Source of the DNA: Phage NC-B | Direction: 5' to 3' (one strand) | Sequence record: MK310183 | DNA: 64,000 nt | Shown here: positions 1,546 to 53,326 of the stretch, piece by piece | Numbering within the stretch: the stretch's first letter is position 1 | Layout: every line of letters begins with the position of its first letter | Notes under the pieces: model-generated | Told to the model about the DNA's origin: nothing | What the model saw: only the letters and a program-made list of their open reading frames with translations | Database searches by the model: none | Program-made: the position numbers and the translations under genes

Positions 1546-1573
1546 TTGCCTCCTCTCGTGGGAGGCTTTTTGT
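1546..1573 (+). terminator. rho-independent terminator
   Basis: GCCTCC(1548-1553)-loop-GGAGGC(1561-1566) then TTTTTGTT. Confidence 0.65.
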
Positions 1574-1601
1574 TATAACGATAATGTAGAAGGAGTATAA
1601 G

Positions 1602-9295: not shown

Positions 9296-9326
9296 AAAGC
9301 CGCCTTCGGGCGGCTTTTCTCATTTT
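9296..9326 (+). terminator. rho-independent terminator
   Basis: GCCGCC-TTCG-GGCGGC then TTTTCTCATTTT. Confidence 0.8.
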
Positions 9327-9390
9327 AAGACCCTTATAAGGAGATATGTAATGTATTCTCTTTGTCTATACACAACTAGGAGGACAAGTT

Positions 9391-15225: not shown

Positions 15226-15288
15226 AGTGAAACTGGTGAATAAGTAATGAAACTACTATATCCAAAAGGAAAATGAAAGGAGAAGAAA

Positions 15289-22746: not shown

Positions 22747-23799
22747 ATGTCTCTTTTCGGTTCTGCTCCTAAATCTAAGACTACGGTAGCTCCGTCTTCT
22801 CAGGTTGATGCTCTTCTGAAACAGATTGTAGCAAATGCTCAGGCTATGAATCAAAACGATCAAGGTTTTATTGGTCGTAACGTAGCGGGTTTTAATGAAA
22901 ACCAAACAGCAGCTCTTTCTAATTTAGCAAATTCTAACACACTCAACCAACTCAGTCAGATGTACACCCCTAGAACTCAACAAGGGTTGGACCAGATGAA
23001 TGAGTTGGCTCAGAAATATCAAAACCTAGTTAATAAAGGTGGTATCACTGCTCAGGATGTTAATAATTTTAGCTCTGGATTGAATAGCTCTGCTTTAGCT
23101 AAGTCTACAGGTAAAGCTGCTGCTAATGTATCTCTTGGTAATGGTTCTGATTCAGGTTCTCTTAGACGTGCTGCTGCTCAAGGTGCTGCTCTCTCTTCAG
23201 CGAATACAAACCTTTCTCGTTCTATTCAAGGTAAAAACATGGGTGTTAGCAATCTTATGAATAACAACTCCTATCAGCAAGGTTTGCTCAATGCTCAATC
23301 GGGTCTAGCAAATCAGAATCTGAATCTAGGAGCTGCTGGGGTACAAGCTGGTCAACAGGCAATACAGAATCAGCTCACTGCTGGGAATCTTCAACAACAG
23401 CAAGATCAACTCCAAGCTAACAACAATTGGGAGAATGCTATTGGCAATCAGCAGTATGGTTGGAATCGGCTTAACAACCAGCTTAATGTATTAAACTCAG
23501 TAAGCCCAATGGCTGGGTACACCATTACTAACAAAGGTGCTGCCCCTAATGTTTCACAACAAATCCTTGGTGCTGGGGTTACTGGTCTTGGTATTGCTGG
23601 ACGTCTAGGTGCTTTTACCCCTAATCAGCAAACTACTAATGCTTGGAACTCATACAATGCTTCTGGAGGTCAAGCTGGGATGGCTGGTCCTATGATTGGT
23701 GGCTCAAACCTGTCTCAACAGAATGGTCAGAGCAACTGGTTATCTACCGCAGGAAGTAATATCTTAGGTGGTGTTCTAGGAGCCTTTGGAGCAAATTAA
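22747..23799 (+). CDS. Gln/Asn/Gly-rich internal virion protein (paralog A)
   Basis: starts MSLFGSAPKSKTT; low-complexity Q/N/S/G; paralogous to next gene. Confidence 0.55.
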   Translation: MSLFGSAPKSKTTVAPSSQVDALLKQIVANAQAMNQNDQGFIGRNVAGFNENQTAALSNLANSNTLNQLSQMYTPRTQQGLDQMNELAQKYQNLVNKGGITAQDVNNFSSGLNSSALAKSTGKAAANVSLGNGSDSGSLRRAAAQGAALSSANTNLSRSIQGKNMGVSNLMNNNSYQQGLLNAQSGLANQNLNLGAAGVQAGQQAIQNQLTAGNLQQQQDQLQANNNWENAIGNQQYGWNRLNNQLNVLNSVSPMAGYTITNKGAAPNVSQQILGAGVTGLGIAGRLGAFTPNQQTTNAWNSYNASGGQAGMAGPMIGGSNLSQQNGQSNWLSTAGSNILGGVLGAFGAN

Positions 23800-24791: not shown

Positions 24792-26459
24792 ATGCAACAA
24801 ACTTCTTATGCGTATCTTCGCAGTCAAGACCCAAGAAATCAGATTTATGGTGTTAAACAAGGGGCCGCTTCGGCCTCTCCATACATGGCAAGACCTGCTT
24901 ACCCAGCTGCTGATGTTTCAATGTATAGTCAGAGACCTCCTGCCTCTCCTGTAGGTTTATCCTCTCTTGTTGCTACTGCTCAAGAAGACCAAGAAGCTAT
25001 GTTAAATCCGGGATTTAGGCAGCGCCTTATGGAAGCAGAGAATCAAGGGACTCCTACAAGCCTTCAGGGTATTGATATTGGCGAACCAGCTCCTGCTATG
25101 AATAACCCAGATCTATCCTCTGATGAGGGTCTACAAGCTGCTGGGTTGATGCCTAGTGACCCACTTCCTGTTACTCCTCCTCGTAAACCTCTGGAAGAAA
25201 CAGATAAAGAGTTCTCTCCAGTTCAGGTGGAACAGGCTCAGAATGTTATTAACACTTTAGCTAATAGTAATCCAGCTCCTGAAGGTATGGCTGGTGCAAC
25301 TCGTGCTAAAGACCAAGAACGTATTAATAATGATATTATGGAAGTAGCTAAAGCTAAAGATCCAGCGCAAGCTTGGAATGAGCTTCAGAAGCAACCGTTC
25401 TACCAGAAGTCTAGTTTCTATACTGGCTTAATGGGTGTTGGTCTTTCTATCATGTCAGGTAAATCTCCTATTGAAGCTTTCCAGATTGGTTCTGGCTTAG
25501 CTGCTCAGGATGAAACTAAACAACAACTAGAAGCCAATCGCGATGCTCTGTTAGAACAAGGCTACTCTCAAGATTCAGTTGCTGCTGCAATTGCTTCGGG
25601 AGATCCTTCTCTTCTCAAGATGCGTCAGATGAGTCCTCAGGAGAAAATGGCTCTTGCTGCTCAGGATGAAGAACGTGCTAATCGTGAGTGGGATAGACGT
25701 CAACAGATTCAGGATCAATCAGTTCGTGAACGTGCTGCTGAGACTCGTCGTGCTGCTGAAGAACGTGCTGATGCACAATTTGCTAAACAGAAAGAGCTTA
25801 TTGAATATCGTGATAAGGTTAAAGCAGACCGCGCTGAACAAGCTGCTCAGAGCTTCAACTTCAGTACGAAAGAGCTTCGTAACGTTCAGAATACTGCTGA
25901 AGGTTCTGTTGCTAAGCAGTGGGCAGAAAAAGCTGCTCTGTTTAAACAGTCTCATAAGGACTTGGATTTGGCAGATCAGGCTATTAAAGATAAAGACTAC
26001 CAATCCGCTCGTACCGCTTACATGCAGGCTATTATGAACTCCGCAAGGGCAGAAATTGGTGCTAACCGTTCTCTCCAAGCTGATGACTTGGCCCACTTTG
26101 CAGAAGACCCATCAATCTTTGTTAAGGTTGGTAACACTTGGTCCCTTAAAGCAGGCTATCGTCCTTCTGATGCTGCTCTGTCATACGCTCGTAAGCAGGC
26201 AACTGTTGGTGCTTCTTCGGCTGACAAAGGTGTTCTGGAGTCTAAGAAATCAACTATTGATGCTTATGTGGGTTCTGGCATGAATAAGAAACGTGCAACA
26301 GCTTTGGTTAACCGTGGTATACCTTCTGGCGGTTTCTATGACCCATACAAGACTTTTGATGCAGAAGCTGAAGAATCTGTTGGTGGAGATGCAACCAATC
26401 CTCGCTTAACAGGTGCTCTTTCTTCTTCAGCGGCAGATACGAGTTGGATGTTCCAGTAA
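24792..26459 (+). CDS. internal virion protein (putative)
   Basis: 555 aa in structural operon, charged helical central region. Confidence 0.5.
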   Translation: MQQTSYAYLRSQDPRNQIYGVKQGAASASPYMARPAYPAADVSMYSQRPPASPVGLSSLVATAQEDQEAMLNPGFRQRLMEAENQGTPTSLQGIDIGEPAPAMNNPDLSSDEGLQAAGLMPSDPLPVTPPRKPLEETDKEFSPVQVEQAQNVINTLANSNPAPEGMAGATRAKDQERINNDIMEVAKAKDPAQAWNELQKQPFYQKSSFYTGLMGVGLSIMSGKSPIEAFQIGSGLAAQDETKQQLEANRDALLEQGYSQDSVAAAIASGDPSLLKMRQMSPQEKMALAAQDEERANREWDRRQQIQDQSVRERAAETRRAAEERADAQFAKQKELIEYRDKVKADRAEQAAQSFNFSTKELRNVQNTAEGSVAKQWAEKAALFKQSHKDLDLADQAIKDKDYQSARTAYMQAIMNSARAEIGANRSLQADDLAHFAEDPSIFVKVGNTWSLKAGYRPSDAALSYARKQATVGASSADKGVLESKKSTIDAYVGSGMNKKRATALVNRGIPSGGFYDPYKTFDAEAEESVGGDATNPRLTGALSSSAADTSWMFQ

Positions 26460-26529
26460 TCTAAGACCTAAGTCCTATCTCTTATAATGTATATAGGAGG
26501 TAGGACATTTTTATTTATAAGGAGACGTT

Positions 26530-29500
26530 ATGGCTAATTTAAAATCGTGGGAAGAAGCTTCCAAAGCTCCTGCGTATCTGAACGCCTCTCCAGAGCAACA
26601 GGCTCAAATGAGAGAACAATACAAGGCAGCAGGGGGCACTATTCCTGAGACTCAACCACAAGAGCAACCACAACAAGAAGAACGAGGTGCTATTGGGGAG
26701 TTTGCTCAAGGTGTGTCTAACGCTCTTCAATCAGGTGGTGCTAACATTGCAGCTAGTGCTGCTAAAGGTTTAGGTGGGCTGGTAGAGATTGGTGAAAACT
26801 TAACTGGTTCAGAAACAAGCTATGGTAAGCGCATTCAAGAGAACTCTAAGCAATTGCTGGAAGAACGCTTATCCAAGATAGAAGACGGTTTTGGTAAAAC
26901 AGCTGGTCAGTATGCTGGTGTTGCTGCTGATATTGGTTTGACAGTTGCAAACCCTGCTGTTGCTGCTGCTGTTATCGCAGCTCGTGAAACAGGTCGTGCT
27001 TATGCTGATCAAACTCCTAAAGAAGATGAAGATAAGTCAGTCTTAGATGCTGCTCTTGTTGGTGGTGCTAACTACGCTGCTCAGAAGATACTTCCGGGCA
27101 TGACTGGTACAGCTTCTACTACTCTTGGTCGTGTAGGACAAAGCGTAGCCTCTAACGCAGTTGCTGGTGCTAAGGGTGGTGCTATTGTTGGTGCTGCTGA
27201 AGCTCAGAACAAATATGGGGATGACACTACTCTAGCTAACGTATTAGAAGGGGCTATTGAAGAGGGTGCACTCGGTGCTGCTTATGGTGGGGCGATTGGT
27301 GGGGTTCATGGGTTAATAAGCCGTCCTAGCCCTCAAGTGTTTGATCGTACTCCTGAGCATGTTAAGACTGACATTGCTGCTGAAGATGAGGCTATTCGTA
27401 AAGCTGCTAACGCTGATGAACTTCGTGAAGCCTATGCTAAAGCTGAGAACGCTAATGCTGCCTCTGCTTTAAACCTTCTGGATGAAAATGGTTTCCGAAT
27501 CACAGATGCAGTTGCTATGGACTCTCCTGCTGTTCAGCGTATTTTAAATACAGACCAAAGCCGCGCTGAGAAGGCTGCTACGGTTCAGAAAGATAGCTCT
27601 AATGTTCCCGGTCTTAATCCTCTCGCTTCTCCTAAGAAGACTCAAGGTAAAGCTTTTGCTGACAATGAGTACAACCAGAAACAAGCTGTGGCAATGAAAG
27701 ATGCAATGGCTGACTACACTAAAGATAACACCAAAGCCCTTACTGATGTTCTAGACAATCTAGACCGAGAGTTAGTAGCTCTGAGAGCAAGTGGTGATTT
27801 TACTGGTAGTACTATTGACATTAAAAACCGTACTCAAGCTGATCGTGATTTTATTGATGCTTATAAAACTTTCTACAGCGAAGCTAATCGTTTCAAAGCT
27901 CGTGATGGTGAAGATCTAAACAACTTCATTGATAAAGCTACTCAGTTGCAGAAGCTATCTGAGAATGTTTCTCCAGAGATGAAGAAGGCCATTGGTGGAT
28001 TAAAGAAACTGAAAGGTATGCCTGAAGGTTTTAACCCTATTCAAGATGCTTTCACTCTGAATAATACAGCTAAGTTCATGAGTAACCAAGACCGTGGTTG
28101 GACCTCTCTGACTGATGATGGTTTTCGTGAAGCTCCGGCTCCTGTGCTAGTTAAGAACCCTCTCGGTGCAGCCAAGTATGTGCTTAATCGCTTTACTTCT
28201 GACCGTGCTCGTGCTCAACGTGAGAAGCAACAGTCAGCTAATAGTGAAGCTATCCGCTCTTTGGCTAGGGCTGATTTAGAAGTACAACGAGCTAGGACTC
28301 AGGCTGAAGAAGCAAGAGCAAAAATGGAAGAAGAACCAACCACAGAAGACATCAAATTCCGTACTCAAAATGATGCACCTTCCGAACCGGTTCGTGAGGA
28401 GCCTTCTGCTACTACTGTGACGGAAGAAATTCCTTCCTCTCCAGCTCCAACTGAAACACCTCTTACTGCGAGGGATTTAGTTGCTCAAAGACGTGCTATC
28501 CAACAAGCAGAGCTTAGACGTCAAGAAGCTGAAGCTGCTCAGGCTCAAGAAAGTGCTACACCAGAACCTGAACCACAGCAAGAAGCTCTTACAGCTAGAG
28601 AATTAGTAGCTCAGCGTAGGGCTGTAGCAGAGGCTAAGAAACGTCAAGAGGCAGAGGAAGCAGAACGTGCTAAAGAAGCTCCTGAGGAAGCCGTAGAAGA
28701 GCCTAAAGAGAAACCTGAGCCATTACCTGCTCGTGCTCCTAAAGCTCCTGAGAAGGCTCCTGAGCCTGTTAAACCGTCCCTTGGTGTAGAACGTCTAGCT
28801 TCTATGTCAACTGCTGCTCGTCAAGCAACAAAAGACCGTGCTGATCGATTTGCTCGTTCTTTGTATTCGGCTGCTGCTAAAGCTAAAGCCACTGCGGAAA
28901 ACTTCCTTTCTTACAAGGGAGATCCTAAAGAGCTTATGCGTCGTATCCGTCAGGAAGACCAAGCAAACAACACACAGCGTCATGAAGAGATGGCTAGAAA
29001 CCAACTAGCTTCCCAGCAAGGCATTGCTTCTGCTAAATCTCAACATGTTCGTGCTTCTTTTGCTGATTGGGTGAAAGAACGTGGGTTGCCTTCTGATATT
29101 GCTACTAAGGCTTTACGGGCTGAAGAGAAAGGTTTAGGTGGGAACGTCACAAGTCTAGATTCACTGAAGCGAAGAGCTGAGCGTTTATATCAGAAACAAA
29201 GAGATGATGAGTTTGACCGTCTCTATCGAGAGGCTCTGGAAGAGAATAAAGCTTTTGATAAGAGAGATGCTCCTAAACTGGTAGACCAGAAGAAAGAGCT
29301 TCAGGATGAAATTGGTGCGTTGCTTGATGCTGAACCGTTACGTCCTGCTCAGAAAGATGCTATGCGTAGGATTATGGAAGACTTCGTGGAGAGTAAGTTT
29401 AAATCTTCAGAGAAAGCTGGAAGGGTTGAGGCTTTGGAAGTTGGTCAGATGAAGGATGTGTGGGATGGGTTTATTAATACCTATAACCGAGAAGTTAACA

Positions 29501-30975
29501 TGTTCAACAAGGCTAACAAGAATTCTCAATACGAAGCAGCAGCTAAACACTTGCAAGCACGTCAAGAACGTCTTGAGACGCTCCGTAACAGAGCTAAGGC
29601 TCGCAGTGATGCTAAGGCAGCCATGGAGGCTGAGAAGCAGTCCTTGGAGGCTATAGCGGCTCAGAAATCAGAGATAGAGAAGATGTTCAAAGAATTGCCT
29701 GAAAGTGTCAGAGAGGCTCAGGAAGGGCGTACTTTGAAACAGCTTGCTGCTCACCATGATAAGAACTCTCCAGTACCACCAGAGCGTTTCCGTAGTATCA
29801 TTGAACGTATTCACAACGCTGAGAGTGATTACCTCGATCGAAAACGCCGTTTGACCGAAGCAGAGGAAGATGCTCGTGAAGCTAAGTGGAATAGGATGTA
29901 TGAACAGGCTGAGGAAATGAACCGTAAGTTTGATATCGATGCTAGAGTGAAGAGAGATAAAGCTCTAAAGGAAGCTCAAGAACGAGAGAATGACTTAATG
30001 GCAGTTCAACGTCAGCGTGATGACATTCATAAGCGTTTAGTCAATACTCTGGAAGAGAAGGGAGTTTCTAGGGAAGATGCTGAAGCGTATGCTGGGTCTT
30101 ACATGGATAATCGGTATGCTTTGTTAGAGAAACCAATGACTCCAGTGGAACATCAGAATGCTCGTGCTCGTATCGAATCTGACGTAGAGAAGTTTGTTAA
30201 GAAATACGAAACAGCTACTCCAATCGAAAGAGAGATTGCTAAGGCAACTGGTGATGCAGATGGGAAGGCTTCTGATCTGGATGCAGAAACAGCAAAAGCT
30301 ATTGAAGATGCTCGTAAAGTGGATTCTGACTTTAAGAAACTTTTAGATGAAGAGAAGGAAATGGAGAAGATTCGTTCGGCTCTACCTGAAGATGAAAGAT
30401 CTCAGGCGAACTCTGATATTCTGGAAAGTATCAAGAAACAGGAAGATGATTTTGCTAGCAAAGCAGAGAAAGCTTTTATTGAAGGGAAGGACTTGCAGGA
30501 GTTAGCGAGTGTTGCAGAAGTTCTAGATAGGGTTCATGGTGCAGACAAGGCTGGTAACAACCGTCGATTTGTACGTGCTCTACAGACTGCTGCCGAGAAC
30601 AAGAAACGTTATGGGGATAATCCAGTGGCTTGGTTTAGTGCTGATGATTATTCTGCTATTGCGAAACTTGGTGCTGCTTCGGCAGGTGGTAACAAATCTC
30701 GAGCACTTGAGAAGATCTTTGGTTCTACAGCAGAACAAGCTAAAGGGAAACTTTTAGGGCGGGATGATGTAGCTAAGATTAGGCGTGTGATTGAAGCGAA
30801 TCCTAATGTTAAGATTCCTTCTTACAAGACAACTACTAGACAAGAGTACATGCAGTTCTTGGAGAAGTATAATGACGAGGGAGAGTTGAAAGTCAAACGT
30901 GGTTCTCTGTCTGACAAGTTGGAGAGAGGTAAGCGTCAAGCCAAACTCCGTGTTAGAGTTCGAGCTAAGGAGTAA
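26530..30975 (+). CDS. large internal virion/ejection protein (1481 aa)
   Basis: A/E/K-rich coiled-coil protein, last gene of structural arm; no polymerase motifs. Confidence 0.5.
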   Translation: MANLKSWEEASKAPAYLNASPEQQAQMREQYKAAGGTIPETQPQEQPQQEERGAIGEFAQGVSNALQSGGANIAASAAKGLGGLVEIGENLTGSETSYGKRIQENSKQLLEERLSKIEDGFGKTAGQYAGVAADIGLTVANPAVAAAVIAARETGRAYADQTPKEDEDKSVLDAALVGGANYAAQKILPGMTGTASTTLGRVGQSVASNAVAGAKGGAIVGAAEAQNKYGDDTTLANVLEGAIEEGALGAAYGGAIGGVHGLISRPSPQVFDRTPEHVKTDIAAEDEAIRKAANADELREAYAKAENANAASALNLLDENGFRITDAVAMDSPAVQRILNTDQSRAEKAATVQKDSSNVPGLNPLASPKKTQGKAFADNEYNQKQAVAMKDAMADYTKDNTKALTDVLDNLDRELVALRASGDFTGSTIDIKNRTQADRDFIDAYKTFYSEANRFKARDGEDLNNFIDKATQLQKLSENVSPEMKKAIGGLKKLKGMPEGFNPIQDAFTLNNTAKFMSNQDRGWTSLTDDGFREAPAPVLVKNPLGAAKYVLNRFTSDRARAQREKQQSANSEAIRSLARADLEVQRARTQAEEARAKMEEEPTTEDIKFRTQNDAPSEPVREEPSATTVTEEIPSSPAPTETPLTARDLVAQRRAIQQAELRRQEAEAAQAQESATPEPEPQQEALTARELVAQRRAVAEAKKRQEAEEAERAKEAPEEAVEEPKEKPEPLPARAPKAPEKAPEPVKPSLGVERLASMSTAARQATKDRADRFARSLYSAAAKAKATAENFLSYKGDPKELMRRIRQEDQANNTQRHEEMARNQLASQQGIASAKSQHVRASFADWVKERGLPSDIATKALRAEEKGLGGNVTSLDSLKRRAERLYQKQRDDEFDRLYREALEENKAFDKRDAPKLVDQKKELQDEIGALLDAEPLRPAQKDAMRRIMEDFVESKFKSSEKAGRVEALEVGQMKDVWDGFINTYNREVNMFNKANKNSQYEAAAKHLQARQERLETLRNRAKARSDAKAAMEAEKQSLEAIAAQKSEIEKMFKELPESVREAQEGRTLKQLAAHHDKNSPVPPERFRSIIERIHNAESDYLDRKRRLTEAEEDAREAKWNRMYEQAEEMNRKFDIDARVKRDKALKEAQERENDLMAVQRQRDDIHKRLVNTLEEKGVSREDAEAYAGSYMDNRYALLEKPMTPVEHQNARARIESDVEKFVKKYETATPIEREIAKATGDADGKASDLDAETAKAIEDARKVDSDFKKLLDEEKEMEKIRSALPEDERSQANSDILESIKKQEDDFASKAEKAFIEGKDLQELASVAEVLDRVHGADKAGNNRRFVRALQTAAENKKRYGDNPVAWFSADDYSAIAKLGAASAGGNKSRALEKIFGSTAEQAKGKLLGRDDVAKIRRVIEANPNVKIPSYKTTTRQEYMQFLEKYNDEGELKVKRGSLSDKLERGKRQAKLRVRVRAKE

Positions 30976-33032: not shown

Positions 33033-33621
33033 AGAGACCTCTCCGTGTCCCTTCAATAATCCACTCCAAATCCTCCACTGCCTCTTCTACAGAACGGTCG
33101 TTAAAGAGGAGATAGGTTGGTAGATTTGTTCCTTCAATATAAGAACGAGAGTCCCCTTCAAAGGAGCAGCCATCTCGGAGAATCTGAACTACTCGAACAT
33201 GGAAGTGTTTCTCTAGTTCTTCAACTTCTGCTTTAAATCCACCATCAGAGAAGACGATAACATCATTCTGTGATGGGATACGTTGTTGAATATTGCTAAC
33301 AGCAAGTTTACCCATGCAGGTCTCACCAAACATGGGCTTCAGATAGTTCTCACTAGTTGCAATCATCAAGTCTCGAACTGACTTACCGTCCCATTCAGGA
33401 CGGCTATGTTCTTTCCACTCACGATCGTTGTACAGCTCCATGAACTCATAAAGAGGTAGACCTAATGCAGCAGCAGCCACTCGATACATAGGCTCCTTAA
33501 AAGCCTTTACATGCGGCCTAAACTCGGTGTTACCAAGTGTTTTCTCTAACCAAGAATTAGCGATTGTGTCTTTACCACAACCCGGTGGTCCATTCAGAAT
33601 TACTACTAATGGTTTACTCAT
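33025..33621 (-). CDS. P-loop kinase, putative (d)NMP kinase
   Basis: Walker A LNGPPGCGKDT. Confidence 0.55.
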   Translation of the reverse strand: MSKPLVVILNGPPGCGKDTIANSWLEKTLGNTEFRPHVKAFKEPMYRVAAAALGLPLYEFMELYNDREWKEHSRPEWDGKSVRDLMIATSENYLKPMFGETCMGKLAVSNIQQRIPSQNDVIVFSDGGFKAEVEELEKHFHVRVVQILRDGCSFEGDSRSYIEGTNLPTYLLFNDRSVEEAVEDLEWIIEGTRRGLYV

Positions 33622-34271
33622 TATTGAATCATCCCTTGAAGATCTTCTTTATCAAAGTGCTTCTCTACTACCGCTTCATACAGATCACGATTCTCTGAAT
33701 AACGACGATAGAAGGTTCCGTGTGAAATTCCCAACTCTTGCTGGATGTGATCATGTGGGATGCCGAGAAAGAGCATTGAGAACATGCTTGCCATCTTACG
33801 GTTTTCCATAATGTCACTCAGGTCTTGGAAGAAGAAAAAGATTCTAGATTCCAAGAACGGATCTCCAGTAGAATCATGCTTATCCATCGCAATCTCTAAA
33901 GGACTTTCCCATGAATTCATCTCAGGAGGTCTAAACATATCAGCCTCTGGAATAGAGTAGATACGTCGGTCTCCAACTGTCTGACGATTAGAACGAATCG
34001 ACCAGATGATATTCTTGACACGATAAGTCATGTGCTCAATATCTTTTTCATCAGTGAGCAGAAGTTCTTCTTGCTTTGCAAACACAAAACGCCAAGCGTT
34101 CAGTAATACTTCCTGAGCAACATCCTCTGCCTCGTGATAGTCTTTAATGTCATACATAAAATACTTATGCACAACTTTCCAGTTCTCTCGATAAAATTCA
34201 TCGAAGGTTGGATAATATTTAATAGGTATGCCATGAATACGATAGCGTGTGGGTGTTGTCTTTTTCTTCAT
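33621..34271 (-). CDS. phage-encoded sigma factor (sigma-70/ECF-like)
   Basis: region-2-like [18 protein letters not shown] and C-terminal [24 protein letters not shown]. Confidence 0.7.
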
Positions 34272-34295: not shown

Positions 34296-34520
34296 TTAAA
34301 CTACACAGAATAAATACATTGCTGTATCAGGACAAGGGATGGCTGTCTGAATGCCACTTACTTTAATCCACATATCCTCTTCAGAGTCATAATAAGCCCA
34401 ATAGGACTGATCTCCATCTACAAAGAATTTAAAGGTTCGTCCCCAAACCTGATTATTGTATTCCCATACTGCATGAAGCTGAGTAACACCTTCTGGTATT
34501 GTAAGTTCCGCTCTGATCAT
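34296..34520 (-). CDS. hypothetical protein
   Basis: 74 aa ORF; start overlaps upstream stop (ATGA). Confidence 0.45.
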   Translation of the reverse strand: MIRAELTIPEGVTQLHAVWEYNNQVWGRTFKFFVDGDQSYWAYYDSEEDMWIKVSGIQTAIPCPDTAMYLFCVV

Positions 34521-35021: not shown

Positions 35022-35049
35022 GAAAAAAGCCACCCGAAGGTGGCTAAGC
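35022..35049 (-). terminator. rho-independent terminator
   Basis: minus-strand AGCCACC-UUCG-GGUGGCU then UUUUUUCG. Confidence 0.75.
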
Positions 35050-35808: not shown

Positions 35809-36141
35809 ATTAATATTTCCTTATATAGATTTAAGATTGTTGCTCTCTTTGAGCGGTTTGTATACTATATACATTACACTTATACAGATAAGGTTCTATT
35901 ATACTATAACCTTTTTGGTAGTAGATAATGACAAGTAGTAATGTATATATGGTATAGCTAGTAAAGCTATTGCAGGCTTGTATATTGGGCAATCATTGTA
36001 ACCCTTGCAAGTACCGAAGGGCAGGAGACACCTGCGAGATAAAAATAGAGAATTAAGGAAATCCTTGATTTAGGTTGAGGACTCCTAGGACTTTGATTCT
36101 CTATTAAAATCAAAAGAAAACTTAACTTAAAACAATAACTT
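35809..36141. promoter_or_regulatory. long AT-rich intergenic region, candidate promoter cluster or origin
   Basis: 333 bp non-coding; repeated TATAC/TATACT motifs; inverted repeat AGAGAAT...ATTCTCT around a CCTAGG palindrome. Confidence 0.35.
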
Positions 36142-36780
36142 CTACCATTCTAAAAGACCTTTAAAACTAGTTTGTTCTACTGTTCTCTGATAAGGTAAGT
36201 TAGATTCTGCTTGTTTGCTTAACATCTCTTGTACTTTATCAGTAATTGGATAATCTTTTTGTAATAAAGAAGCTATCCACTCTTTCCTACTTTCCAGTTC
36301 TTTTCTAATCTCTTGCAGAGACACAGCTTTGTAATCAATTTGTTCCATAGAGGTACAAAAATATCTCCAATCTTTGATAGTAGAGTTATGAGTATGAGCA
36401 TAGATATTATACTTTCCTCTCATTTCATCAGAGTGAATAGGAATATGAGTTACCCAAAATTCTTTGTATTTATAATCACCACTGATGTGTCTAAAGACTT
36501 TCATCATATCAGGGAGAAGTTCTAATCTGTCATGATTTCCTAAGACAAGATGTTTCTCTCCCTTTACTTCAGCGATAATATCAAGTGCATATTTCTCAAA
36601 CACCCAATCACCTGTAAAGAAAGTTTTATCACGTTTAGTAACATGGTCGAACGCTGCTAAGATAGCTTTGTCATGTTCTTCAATACTACTAAACTTCTTT
36701 CTAAAATTACAGATGTTACGATGGCCTAGGTGACCATCACCTGCAAAATAAACTTCAGCCATTCTCGTATGTGTCCTCAT
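36142..36780 (-). CDS. calcineurin-like metallophosphoesterase
   Basis: motifs GDGHLGHRN (GDxHG), GDWVF, LVLGNHD (GNHD). Confidence 0.75.
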   Translation of the reverse strand: MRTHTRMAEVYFAGDGHLGHRNICNFRKKFSSIEEHDKAILAAFDHVTKRDKTFFTGDWVFEKYALDIIAEVKGEKHLVLGNHDRLELLPDMMKVFRHISGDYKYKEFWVTHIPIHSDEMRGKYNIYAHTHNSTIKDWRYFCTSMEQIDYKAVSLQEIRKELESRKEWIASLLQKDYPITDKVQEMLSKQAESNLPYQRTVEQTSFKGLLEW

Positions 36781-42217: not shown

Positions 42218-42229
42218 TATACATTATGT

Positions 42230-42967
42230 TTATGATTTTTCAGATTCCATTGCTTTAACAATAGCTTTACAGAAACCTGAACGAACAATATCATCCGATT
42301 CGCCATCTACTAGAGCGGCAAATTCAAATAACTGGTGACGGTAGATGAAATCAGTAGCCCAATCAAGACCGCTCTCACCACGCATGTCGTGCTGGTTAGT
42401 GTCCCCCATACAGAACATCTGAGAGGTTTCACCAAGACGTGTCATGATTGAATATGCTTCATCAGGAGTAGTGTTCTGGAACTCATCAACAATCACGATA
42501 GCATCGTTGAACGAGCGACCACGTAGATATTCCAGAGGTACGAACTCAATATTACCATTACCTACTTGACATTCGTAGAAACCTTTACCGTAGCGCTGAG
42601 TAATAACATCAACGATTGGCATTAGGTATGGTTCAAACTTCTCACGAAGCCCACCGGGAAGTAATCCAAGACTATTACCCATACCAACAGCAGGTCGGCT
42701 TAGGATAATCTTCTCAATCTTCCCACTCTTCAGAGCATCAATCACTGTAGAAGTGATTACGAAGGTCTTACCACAACCAGCAGGAGCATCTGTGAATACA
42801 ACCTGTTTGGTTTTAATTGCATCAAGCAGCTCACTCTGGAATTGGTTCTGAGGTACTACCGGCTTAGCAAGAACTACTTCTTCAAATTCCCGCTTTCCTT
42901 TCTTGGTGACGAGAGCTTCACGACGTAATTCTCTCCGTGATGCTTTCCGAGATTCTCTACGACTCAT
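42230..42967 (-). CDS. phoH: PhoH-like ATPase
   Basis: DAPAGCGKTF Walker A, ILSRPAVGMGNSLGLLPGGLREKFEPY PhoH signature. Confidence 0.85.
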   Translation of the reverse strand: MSRRESRKASRRELRREALVTKKGKREFEEVVLAKPVVPQNQFQSELLDAIKTKQVVFTDAPAGCGKTFVITSTVIDALKSGKIEKIILSRPAVGMGNSLGLLPGGLREKFEPYLMPIVDVITQRYGKGFYECQVGNGNIEFVPLEYLRGRSFNDAIVIVDEFQNTTPDEAYSIMTRLGETSQMFCMGDTNQHDMRGESGLDWATDFIYRHQLFEFAALVDGESDDIVRSGFCKAIVKAMESEKS

Positions 42968-44986: not shown

Positions 44987-45172
44987 TTATAGCATACAAA
45001 GAATAATAACAAGAGGTAGTGTTATAGCAAAATGTACCAGAACAACACTACCTAGCTTGATAGCTTTAACATCCTCTTCTGCTGGGTTTTCTTTAATTGC
45101 TAAATTTCGAGCTTTATATATAACAGTACCAACTATTAACGACCACACGGCCCACACAATCAGTGAAATCAT
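44987..45172 (-). CDS. small two-TM membrane protein (paralog 1)
   Basis: MISLIVWAVWSLIVGTVIY...KENP...LGSVVLVHFAITLPLVIIL. Confidence 0.5.
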   Translation of the reverse strand: MISLIVWAVWSLIVGTVIYKARNLAIKENPAEEDVKAIKLGSVVLVHFAITLPLVIILCML

Positions 45173-46313: not shown

Positions 46314-46385
46314 TTCACTCTCTCCTGTTTAACACAATATTCTTATACTGTATATACATTTGAGAGTGATCATATCTACTACCAA

Positions 46386-52901: not shown

Positions 52902-53087
52902 TTATTCTACTTCGAAGTGTTTGATCACACCAGTTAGTACATCAGATTGGAATGTACCCACTAGCTCTGCGCCTCGGAAGAAATTGACATTTGTTCCTAG
53001 TGTTTCAAAGCGCTCTGCTTGAATGTCCAGAGATTGAATATTCCCTTCTGATGTTACTGTACGAAACATGATTGTATATTTATTCAT
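52902..53087 (-). CDS. hypothetical protein
   Basis: 61 aa ORF. Confidence 0.4.
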   Translation of the reverse strand: MNKYTIMFRTVTSEGNIQSLDIQAERFETLGTNVNFFRGAELVGTFQSDVLTGVIKHFEVE

Positions 53088-53326
53088 AGACTTGTTACTC
53101 CCTTATCTGCTTGTGCAATAGCAAAAATTCGCTCTACACATTCCATTGAGTCTTTATCACCACGCTTTAAGAAGGTGACGATAGCAGAGAATTGATTACC
53201 AATCATTCTCTTATTGGTGATACCAAACTCTTCACAGAGTTGGTTAATCATTTTACGAGAGCCTACAATCAGAGGCTCTTTTTCTTCAGTCATTCCACGG
53301 CTGATCAAATCTTCGATAGACAACAT
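53084..53326 (-). CDS. hypothetical protein
   Basis: 80 aa ORF; ATGA overlap with downstream gene. Confidence 0.45.
   Translation of the reverse strand: MLSIEDLISRGMTEEKEPLIVGSRKMINQLCEEFGITNKRMIGNQFSAIVTFLKRGDKDSMECVERIFAIAQADKGVTSL

Follow-up and report, generated by a model that had tools for sequence, protein, structure and literature searches.

We found that the gene at 33621-34271 of the window, the 64 kb of phage DNA analysed here out of a genome of ~77 kb (the remaining ~13 kb lie outside the analysis), almost certainly encodes a gp36-type sigma factor of a phiEco32-like coliphage, which by analogy with gp36 would act as gp36 does. Genetic, biochemical and structural work on phiEco32 has already described this gene together with its mechanism, partner and promoters; the finding is correct, and since the system is characterised there in such detail, it is already known. 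For the window, we computed homology, contact residues, promoter elements and their positions, and the presence of the partner protein; biochemical activity is inferred from the ortholog.

By its sequence, the window is that of a phiEco32-like E. coli podophage. Its plus-strand genes up to ~31 kb encode structural proteins (SU10-type portal, tail and Ig-domain), and past ~31 kb replication and nucleotide-metabolism genes follow on the minus strand, the same layout as in phiEco32. The 5-kb stretch around the sigma gene matches ~100 podophages from the phiEco32 group (Gordonclarkvirinae), of E. coli and Shigella; the nearest genome in this comparison is that of phage Bas87, at 97.8% identity, followed by SU7 at 93%. 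The window had been predicted to hold no phage RNA polymerase, which is consistent with a Pfam search that found no RNA polymerase domain among its ten largest ORFs and with the reliance of phiEco32 on host RNA polymerase (PMC8948821). Three of these ten ORFs had no Pfam match, and PHROGs assigned two of the three to unknown function and one to the nucleotidyltransferases. The 1481-aa ORF at 26530-30975 on the plus strand, which is the gp26 homolog and the first gene after promoter P26, has no Pfam domain and falls in a PHROG of unknown function, as does the 555-aa ORF at 24792-26459 on the same strand.

The sigma gene had been predicted at 33621-34271, and an ORF of 216 aa with an ATG start lies exactly there, its stop overlapping the start of the next gene.

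33621-34271, minus strand: sigma factor gene, phiEco32 gp36 ortholog (PDB 9m7y_F, PHROG 1740, contact residues).

Searching PDB with phmmer, we matched this ORF to 9m7y_F, the phiEco32 gp36 protein listed as 'RNA polymerase ECF sigma factor', with an E value of 9.7e-118. The alignment is full-length (residues 1-215 against 1-213), and global identity to gp36 is 81%. The two proteins belong to the same length class, and their genes share a position in the middle cluster by the dNMP kinase and exonuclease genes; the window protein differs by a 2-residue insertion in the inter-domain linker. The ORF also matched PHROG 1740, 'RNA polymerase sigma factor', with an E value of 1e-43. Proteins 100% identical to it are already in GenBank from MLP3 and HC-25922, the SU7 copy is 99.5% identical, and Kuravirus-type phages carry an ~80% form. 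Among the Suseptimavirus-type phages (MLP3, HC-25922, SU7, Bas87 and Bas88), the sigma factor is identical or near-identical within surrounding DNA of 93-98% identity, and we saw no biological difference from the window, although several of these records label the gene 'hypothetical protein'.

The original prediction had rested on region-2-like and region-4 helix–turn–helix (HTH) signatures, which hold as folds in the cryo-EM structure of the ortholog but not as matches to generic profiles. Pfam Sigma70_r2 scored 19.1 bits against a cutoff of 24 and covered residues 26-61 only, TIGR02937 (sigma70-ECF) scored 20.6 bits against a cutoff of 42.9, and ~20 ECF models matched residues 22-63, all below cutoff. 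Neither Sigma70_r4 nor r4_2 matched the ORF at E values up to 10 in the Pfam search, in which the HTH-type matches were faint and C-terminal (DUF1492, E 0.028; TetR_N, E 0.064). Sequence homology to region 4 is absent from gp36 too (Lavysh 2022, PMC8948821), and both the region-2-like and the region-4-like folds are visible in its structure (PMC12276001). Because the generic sigma-70 and ECF profiles all stay below their curated cutoffs, placing the protein in the sigma-70 family depends on the structure of the ortholog.

That structure, a cryo-EM complex of E. coli RNA polymerase with gp36, gp79 and promoter P68 (Xu et al. 2025, PMC12276001; PDB 9M7Y), places the N-terminal domain of gp36 on the clamp helices in a sigma-2-like manner. 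The AATGTA element at -14 to -9 is read by E79, H80, S91, S94 and N95, with Y83 and W90 stacked where the DNA forks; the C-terminal domain is sigma-4-like and binds the flap-tip helix, with R187 contacting the -37 G and Y186 the -34 A (PMC12276001). Using the residue list of the same paper, we found that 23 of 24 contact positions are identical between the window protein and gp36, the sole change being a conservative one, M138 to L. All ten base-contacting residues are identical, and the list also covers the groove that holds gp79. The identical positions include the -10 readers and fork-junction residues E79/H80/Y83/R84/W90/S91/S94/N95, the -35 readers Y186/R187 and the acidic clamp-helix patch D44/E47/E49/D50/E54; four of the five residues of the hydrophobic flap-tip groove are identical, M138 being the fifth.

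The partner of gp36 is also present in the window.

53084-53326, minus strand: gp79 homolog, 80 aa (tblastn with phiEco32 gp79; PHROG 8339).

The phiEco32 gp79 query matched this ORF by tblastn with 76% identity and an E value of 1.5e-38, and PHROG 8339 matched it with an E value of 2.5e-47. At the gp36-binding positions L6/L9/V10/M14 of gp79, the window homolog has I/L/I/M in an alignment read by eye. In phiEco32, gp79 displaces sigma-70 region 4, anchors on the C-terminal domain of gp36 and raises gp36 activity at P26 and P68 three- to four-fold (PMC12276001).

The prediction of a shared promoter motif upstream of late genes was borne out by the promoters themselves. Six gp36 promoters have been defined experimentally in phiEco32, namely P6, P13, P26, P40, P58 and P68 (PMC8948821 text and Table S3), and each has a counterpart with AATGTA in the window, upstream of the orthologous gene (6, 13, 26, 40, 58 and 68). 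All six were placed by orthologous position and a position weight matrix (PWM).

1559-1590, plus strand: P6-type late promoter, TGGGA ... TAATGTAGA, predicted start ~1597 (variant TAATGTAgA, as in phiEco32 P6).
9326-9357, plus strand: P13-type late promoter, TAAGA ... TAATGTATT, predicted start ~9364.
26462-26493, plus strand: P26-type late promoter, TAAGA ... TAATGTATA, predicted start ~26500.
35868-35899, minus strand: P40-type middle promoter, TAGAA ... TAATGTATA, predicted start ~35861.
42218-42249, minus strand: P58-type middle promoter, TGGAA ... TAATGTATA, predicted start ~42211.
46353-46384, minus strand: P68-type middle promoter, TGGTA ... AAATGTATA, predicted start ~46346.

The shared core, tAATGTAtA, lies at about -15 to -7 of the predicted starts; the plus-strand copies of AATGTA start at 1583, 9350 and 26486, and the minus-strand copies have their A-14 at 35875, 42225 and 46360. 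In phiEco32, the elements read TAATGTAgA at P6, aAATGTATA at P68 and TAATGTATA at P13, P26, P40 and P58 (PMC8948821), and transcription begins 6-8 nt past the element (PMC8948821; PMC4281155). The P6 and P68 variants are the same in the window. Its P13 differs from that of phiEco32 in reading TAATGTATT, with T rather than A at -7, and its P40 has T at -37 unless the spacer is one base shorter. Of the phiEco32 promoters, P26 is gp36-dependent in vitro, and P68 is the promoter of the cryo-EM open complex (PMC12276001).

At the late promoters P6, P13 and P26, terminator and promoter are fused or abutting. The -35 box of P6 lies inside the 3' arm of the terminator hairpin at 1548-1566, P13 directly follows the terminator at 9296-9317, and the -10 element of P26 lies inside a 15-bp terminator-like hairpin at 26472-26506, whose pairing is maintained between the window and phiEco32 through G-U pairs and compensatory changes (by eye). 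The ORF that starts at 1602 has its Shine-Dalgarno sequence, AAGGAG (1590-1595), ahead of the predicted P6 start (~1597), so P6 transcripts would have just a 5-nt leader for this ORF; phiEco32 has the same arrangement.

We aligned 14 promoter sequences in register, comprising the sites of the window and the seven sites of phiEco32. AATGTA and the A at -34 were invariant (14 of 14), and, as read by eye, -38 was T and -37 a purine in 13 of 14 each. The -37 purine, -34 A and AATGTA of this alignment agree with the structural contacts of gp36. The composite pattern TRRNA-N18-20-AATGTA had 9 matches against 2.6 +/- 1.6 expected, and WAATGTATA had 5 against 1.2 +/- 1.2, all five in non-coding gaps. 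With a PWM trained on the six phiEco32 promoters only, the six orthologous sites and one extra site were the top seven of 128,000 positions, a test that is not independent for the six, since they are homologous to the training set. Also in favour of the gp36 reading, sigma-70-type promoter matches in the middle and late regions were at shuffle level. Against it, TAATGTATA with up to one mismatch showed no genome-wide enrichment (25 matches against 18 +/- 4). In motif discovery in intergenic regions, the check proposed with the original prediction, Shine-Dalgarno and terminator words ranked first among k-mers in gaps between crude ORF calls, and AATGTAT reached only p = 6e-3. With only six sites, count-based discovery is weak, and MEME failed similarly for phage 7-11 (Lavysh 2022, PMC8948821). 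The statistics for the gp36 motif are modest but consistent, and the motif is convincing by position, composite architecture and orthology, not by raw count.

Several further candidates were considered and set aside. A composite match at 23461-23490 on the plus strand (TGGAATC ... TAATGTATT) falls within a structural gene, and the next gene follows ~310 nt downstream of it; its -35 heptamer is that of P58, and phiEco32 also has TAATGTATT at the corresponding place (23028). Ranked 48th by the PWM, it probably reflects chance or coding conservation. The composite match at 45007 on the plus strand looks like chance. A weak candidate before the lysis genes, TAATGAAAC (A-14 at 15246, PWM rank 10), lacks T at -10 in its core, and the phiEco32 element before the holin gene, TAATATATA, lacks the G at -11; we did not accept it.

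Two other readings of the sigma gene and its promoters bear on this evidence. The sub-threshold generic profiles and the faint C-terminal TetR_N and DUF1492 matches would suit an ordinary HTH regulator, TetR-like or DUF1492-like, that acts with sigma-70 and is no sigma factor, but we regard this as extremely improbable, given 81% full-length identity to a protein that occupies the sigma-2 and sigma-4 positions on RNA polymerase with the promoter melted in cryo-EM, and given that the clamp-helix and fork-junction residues are all conserved. Scarcely more credible is a sigma factor whose specificity has drifted from that of phiEco32, with TAAGACC...CTTATAA, the motif originally proposed, as its true target. 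The 19% of positions at which the protein differs from gp36 leave the ten base-contacting residues untouched, and AATGTA is invariant at the six orthologous sites in both phages. TAAGACC does stand at an equal distance from AATGTA in two late promoters, at -38 to -32 of P13 (9326-9332) and P26 (26462-26468), where phiEco32 conserves it; covering the invariant -34 A as well as a purine at -37, it is a genuine -35-like box, but none of the other four promoters has it. The distance between CTTATAA and TAATGTAT is 17 nt in P13 but 4 nt in P26, and since CTTATAA is thus out of register, and phiEco32 does not conserve it, we do not count it as an element. The core tAATGTAtA had been overlooked, although it is present at both of the terminator sites named in the original prediction. 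Likewise, the 'TATAC-rich' region at 35.8-36.1 kb that had been singled out does hold P40, whose core (plus-strand reading TATACATTA) is invariant in 8 genomes, but the core motif there had been missed.

We therefore keep to a gp36-type sigma factor with the specificity of gp36. Redirection of host core RNA polymerase by the phage sigma factor, as had been proposed for the window, has been demonstrated experimentally for the 81%-identical gp36 (PMC12276001, PMC8948821) and by analogy probably applies here. The sigma-2-like N-terminal domain of the window protein would bind the clamp helices of the host E. coli core enzyme and would read and melt AATGTA at -14 to -9, and its sigma-4-like C-terminal domain would bind the flap-tip helix and touch the -35 region at the -37 purine and the -34 A. 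The gp79 homolog would push sigma-70 region 4 off the polymerase, shutting off transcription of the host and of early phage genes, and would also clamp onto the C-terminal domain of the phage sigma factor and stimulate it. The six AATGTA promoters would head the middle operons on the minus strand and the late operons on the plus strand of the window.

How the sigma gene itself is first transcribed may differ from phiEco32, as the DNA upstream of it is not homologous between the two phages. One element in this region is shared with phiEco32.

35028-35045, minus strand: intrinsic terminator, AGCCACCTTCGGGTGGCT then TTTTTCG, separating the gp40 homolog from the spanin/sigma gene group.

In phiEco32, a near-consensus sigma-70 promoter, TGGACA-18-TATAAT, lies just upstream of gene 36, inside gene 37 (also PMC8948821). 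Between the terminator at 35028-35045 and the sigma gene of the window we found no counterpart, the best match being 9 of 12, and in place of the macro-domain gene 37 the window has an unrelated ORF of 74 aa (34296-34520). An autoregulatory promoter upstream of the sigma gene was rejected: the AATGTA sequences there (A-14 at 34297 and 34320) ranked 590 and 3273 by the PWM and have poor -35 regions. Our guess is that the sigma gene is first expressed by read-through from upstream promoters.

The extra site among the top seven PWM positions lies beside P40 and is followed by a conserved non-coding block.

35916-35947, plus strand: seventh gp36-type promoter-like site, TGGTAGTAGATA-N11-TAATGTATA, predicted start ~35954, consensus-perfect and divergent from P40.
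35954-36105, plus strand: conserved, apparently structured non-coding stretch (alignments, consensus fold).

This site ranked 6th of 128,000 positions with the PWM from the six phiEco32 promoters. It lies on the strand opposite the middle genes and points away from P40, and it has the same -35 box as P68. phiEco32 carries it as well, at 36704; it is not among the six promoters of PMC8948821 Table S3 and may have been noticed in Pavlova 2012. Both boxes are invariant in 17 related genomes, unlike the 11-nt spacer and the flank upstream of the site, and in some of the related genomes an insertion of ~140 nt separates the site from P40.

Downstream, the predicted +1 is also the exact start of a 6-bp hairpin, which is 98% paired, with compensatory changes at 2 pairs and, in 8 of 17 sequences, a G-U pair that the other strand would show as a C-A mismatch. 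The block at 36016-36105 is invariant or nearly so in 17 of 17 genomes, exceeding adjacent coding DNA in conservation, and its long hairpin has two wobble pairs that are valid on the plus strand only. After the block comes a stretch of 22-25% GC, AT-rich to ~36180. Single-sequence fold energies of the non-coding block were -46.7 and -47.0 kcal/mol on the two strands, so single-sequence folding cannot tell the strands apart. Downstream of the seventh site, we found neither an ORF of 30 aa or more nor an intrinsic terminator on the plus strand. Rfam gave no match at gathering thresholds in the whole window, with chance-level matches only at 35900-36200, and an IMG/VR scan for the conserved block returned five loci. 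In the literature on the phiEco32-like phage group we found nothing relevant on antisense RNA, an origin or the transcriptome. The middle part of 35954-36105 occurs as two alternative cassettes among relatives, for example in ECBP2 and myPSH2311 as against the rest. At 36066-36095 on the plus strand, the apical part of the long hairpin carries a direct repeat, AGGAC...AGGAC here and AGGGAC...AGGGAC in phiEco32-type genomes; both copies change together across genomes, which may reflect two linked haplotypes.

From these sequence patterns we tentatively propose, giving it close to an even chance at best, a seventh gp36-dependent promoter in phiEco32-like phages that would drive a structured non-coding or antisense RNA. 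Slightly short of an even chance also goes to an account in which 35916-35947 is no working promoter and has a role at the DNA level, as an inverted repeat with P40 or as a polymerase 'sink' that regulates P40, with the downstream block serving as the minus-strand terminator of the preceding middle operon. The seventh site and P40 do form a perfect 12-nt inverted repeat, but its arms are split by the ~140-nt insertion in some genomes and the boxes are invariant all the same. Likewise, a T-run, TTTTTATCT, comes after the large hairpin on the minus strand and could make it a terminator, the fold energies are the same on both strands, and neither a terminator nor an ORF follows the site on the plus strand; the two wobble pairs of the large hairpin, however, are valid on the plus strand only, and the +1 hairpin combines compensatory changes with G-U pairs that become C-A mismatches on the minus strand. 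The -35 box shared with P68, a proven promoter, also speaks for transcription from the site. If the seventh site is a promoter, its RNA would be ~150 nt or longer, would run into the AT-rich stretch and from there, in antisense, into the upstream middle genes, and could be a regulatory or antisense RNA. The primary origin of T7 consists of a promoter and an AT-rich stretch, and by analogy we speculate that the seventh-site transcript might prime or activate a replication origin.

The system can also be set against others of its kind. ECF (group 4) sigma-70 factors (TIGR02937; for example M. tuberculosis SigL, PDB 6dv9) share the sigma-2 and sigma-4 layout with a linker through the active-site cleft, and resemble the window protein weakly by profile in region 2.1-2.2 (residues 22-63). 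Compared with them, gp36 has a rotated first helix, a shortened sigma-4 helix 4 and a different orientation of the flap-tip helix, and reads its -10-like element, AATGTA, partly as duplex DNA (PMC12276001). Salmonella phage 7-11 also encodes a sigma factor, gp47, in a phiEco32-like genome with promoters at similar positions, but gp47 has only ~15% identity, the phage has neither a gp79 homolog nor host shut-off, and gp47 was judged to be independently acquired (PMC8948821). In T4, AsiA and MotA likewise combine a repressor of sigma-70 region 4 function with a specificity factor in the early-to-middle switch, as compared by Xu 2025 (PMC12276001); sigma-70 is kept and remodelled there, whereas in the gp36 system it is replaced by a separate sigma factor.

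The practical value of the sigma finding is in annotation: it bears on the 'hypothetical protein' labels of the relatives, and annotation of the window genome can take over the positions of the six promoters as well as the gp79 homolog. If real, the seventh site and the block that follows it would be a missing piece of the transcription map of a model phage family, either a non-coding or antisense transcript that depends on the sigma factor or an origin element.
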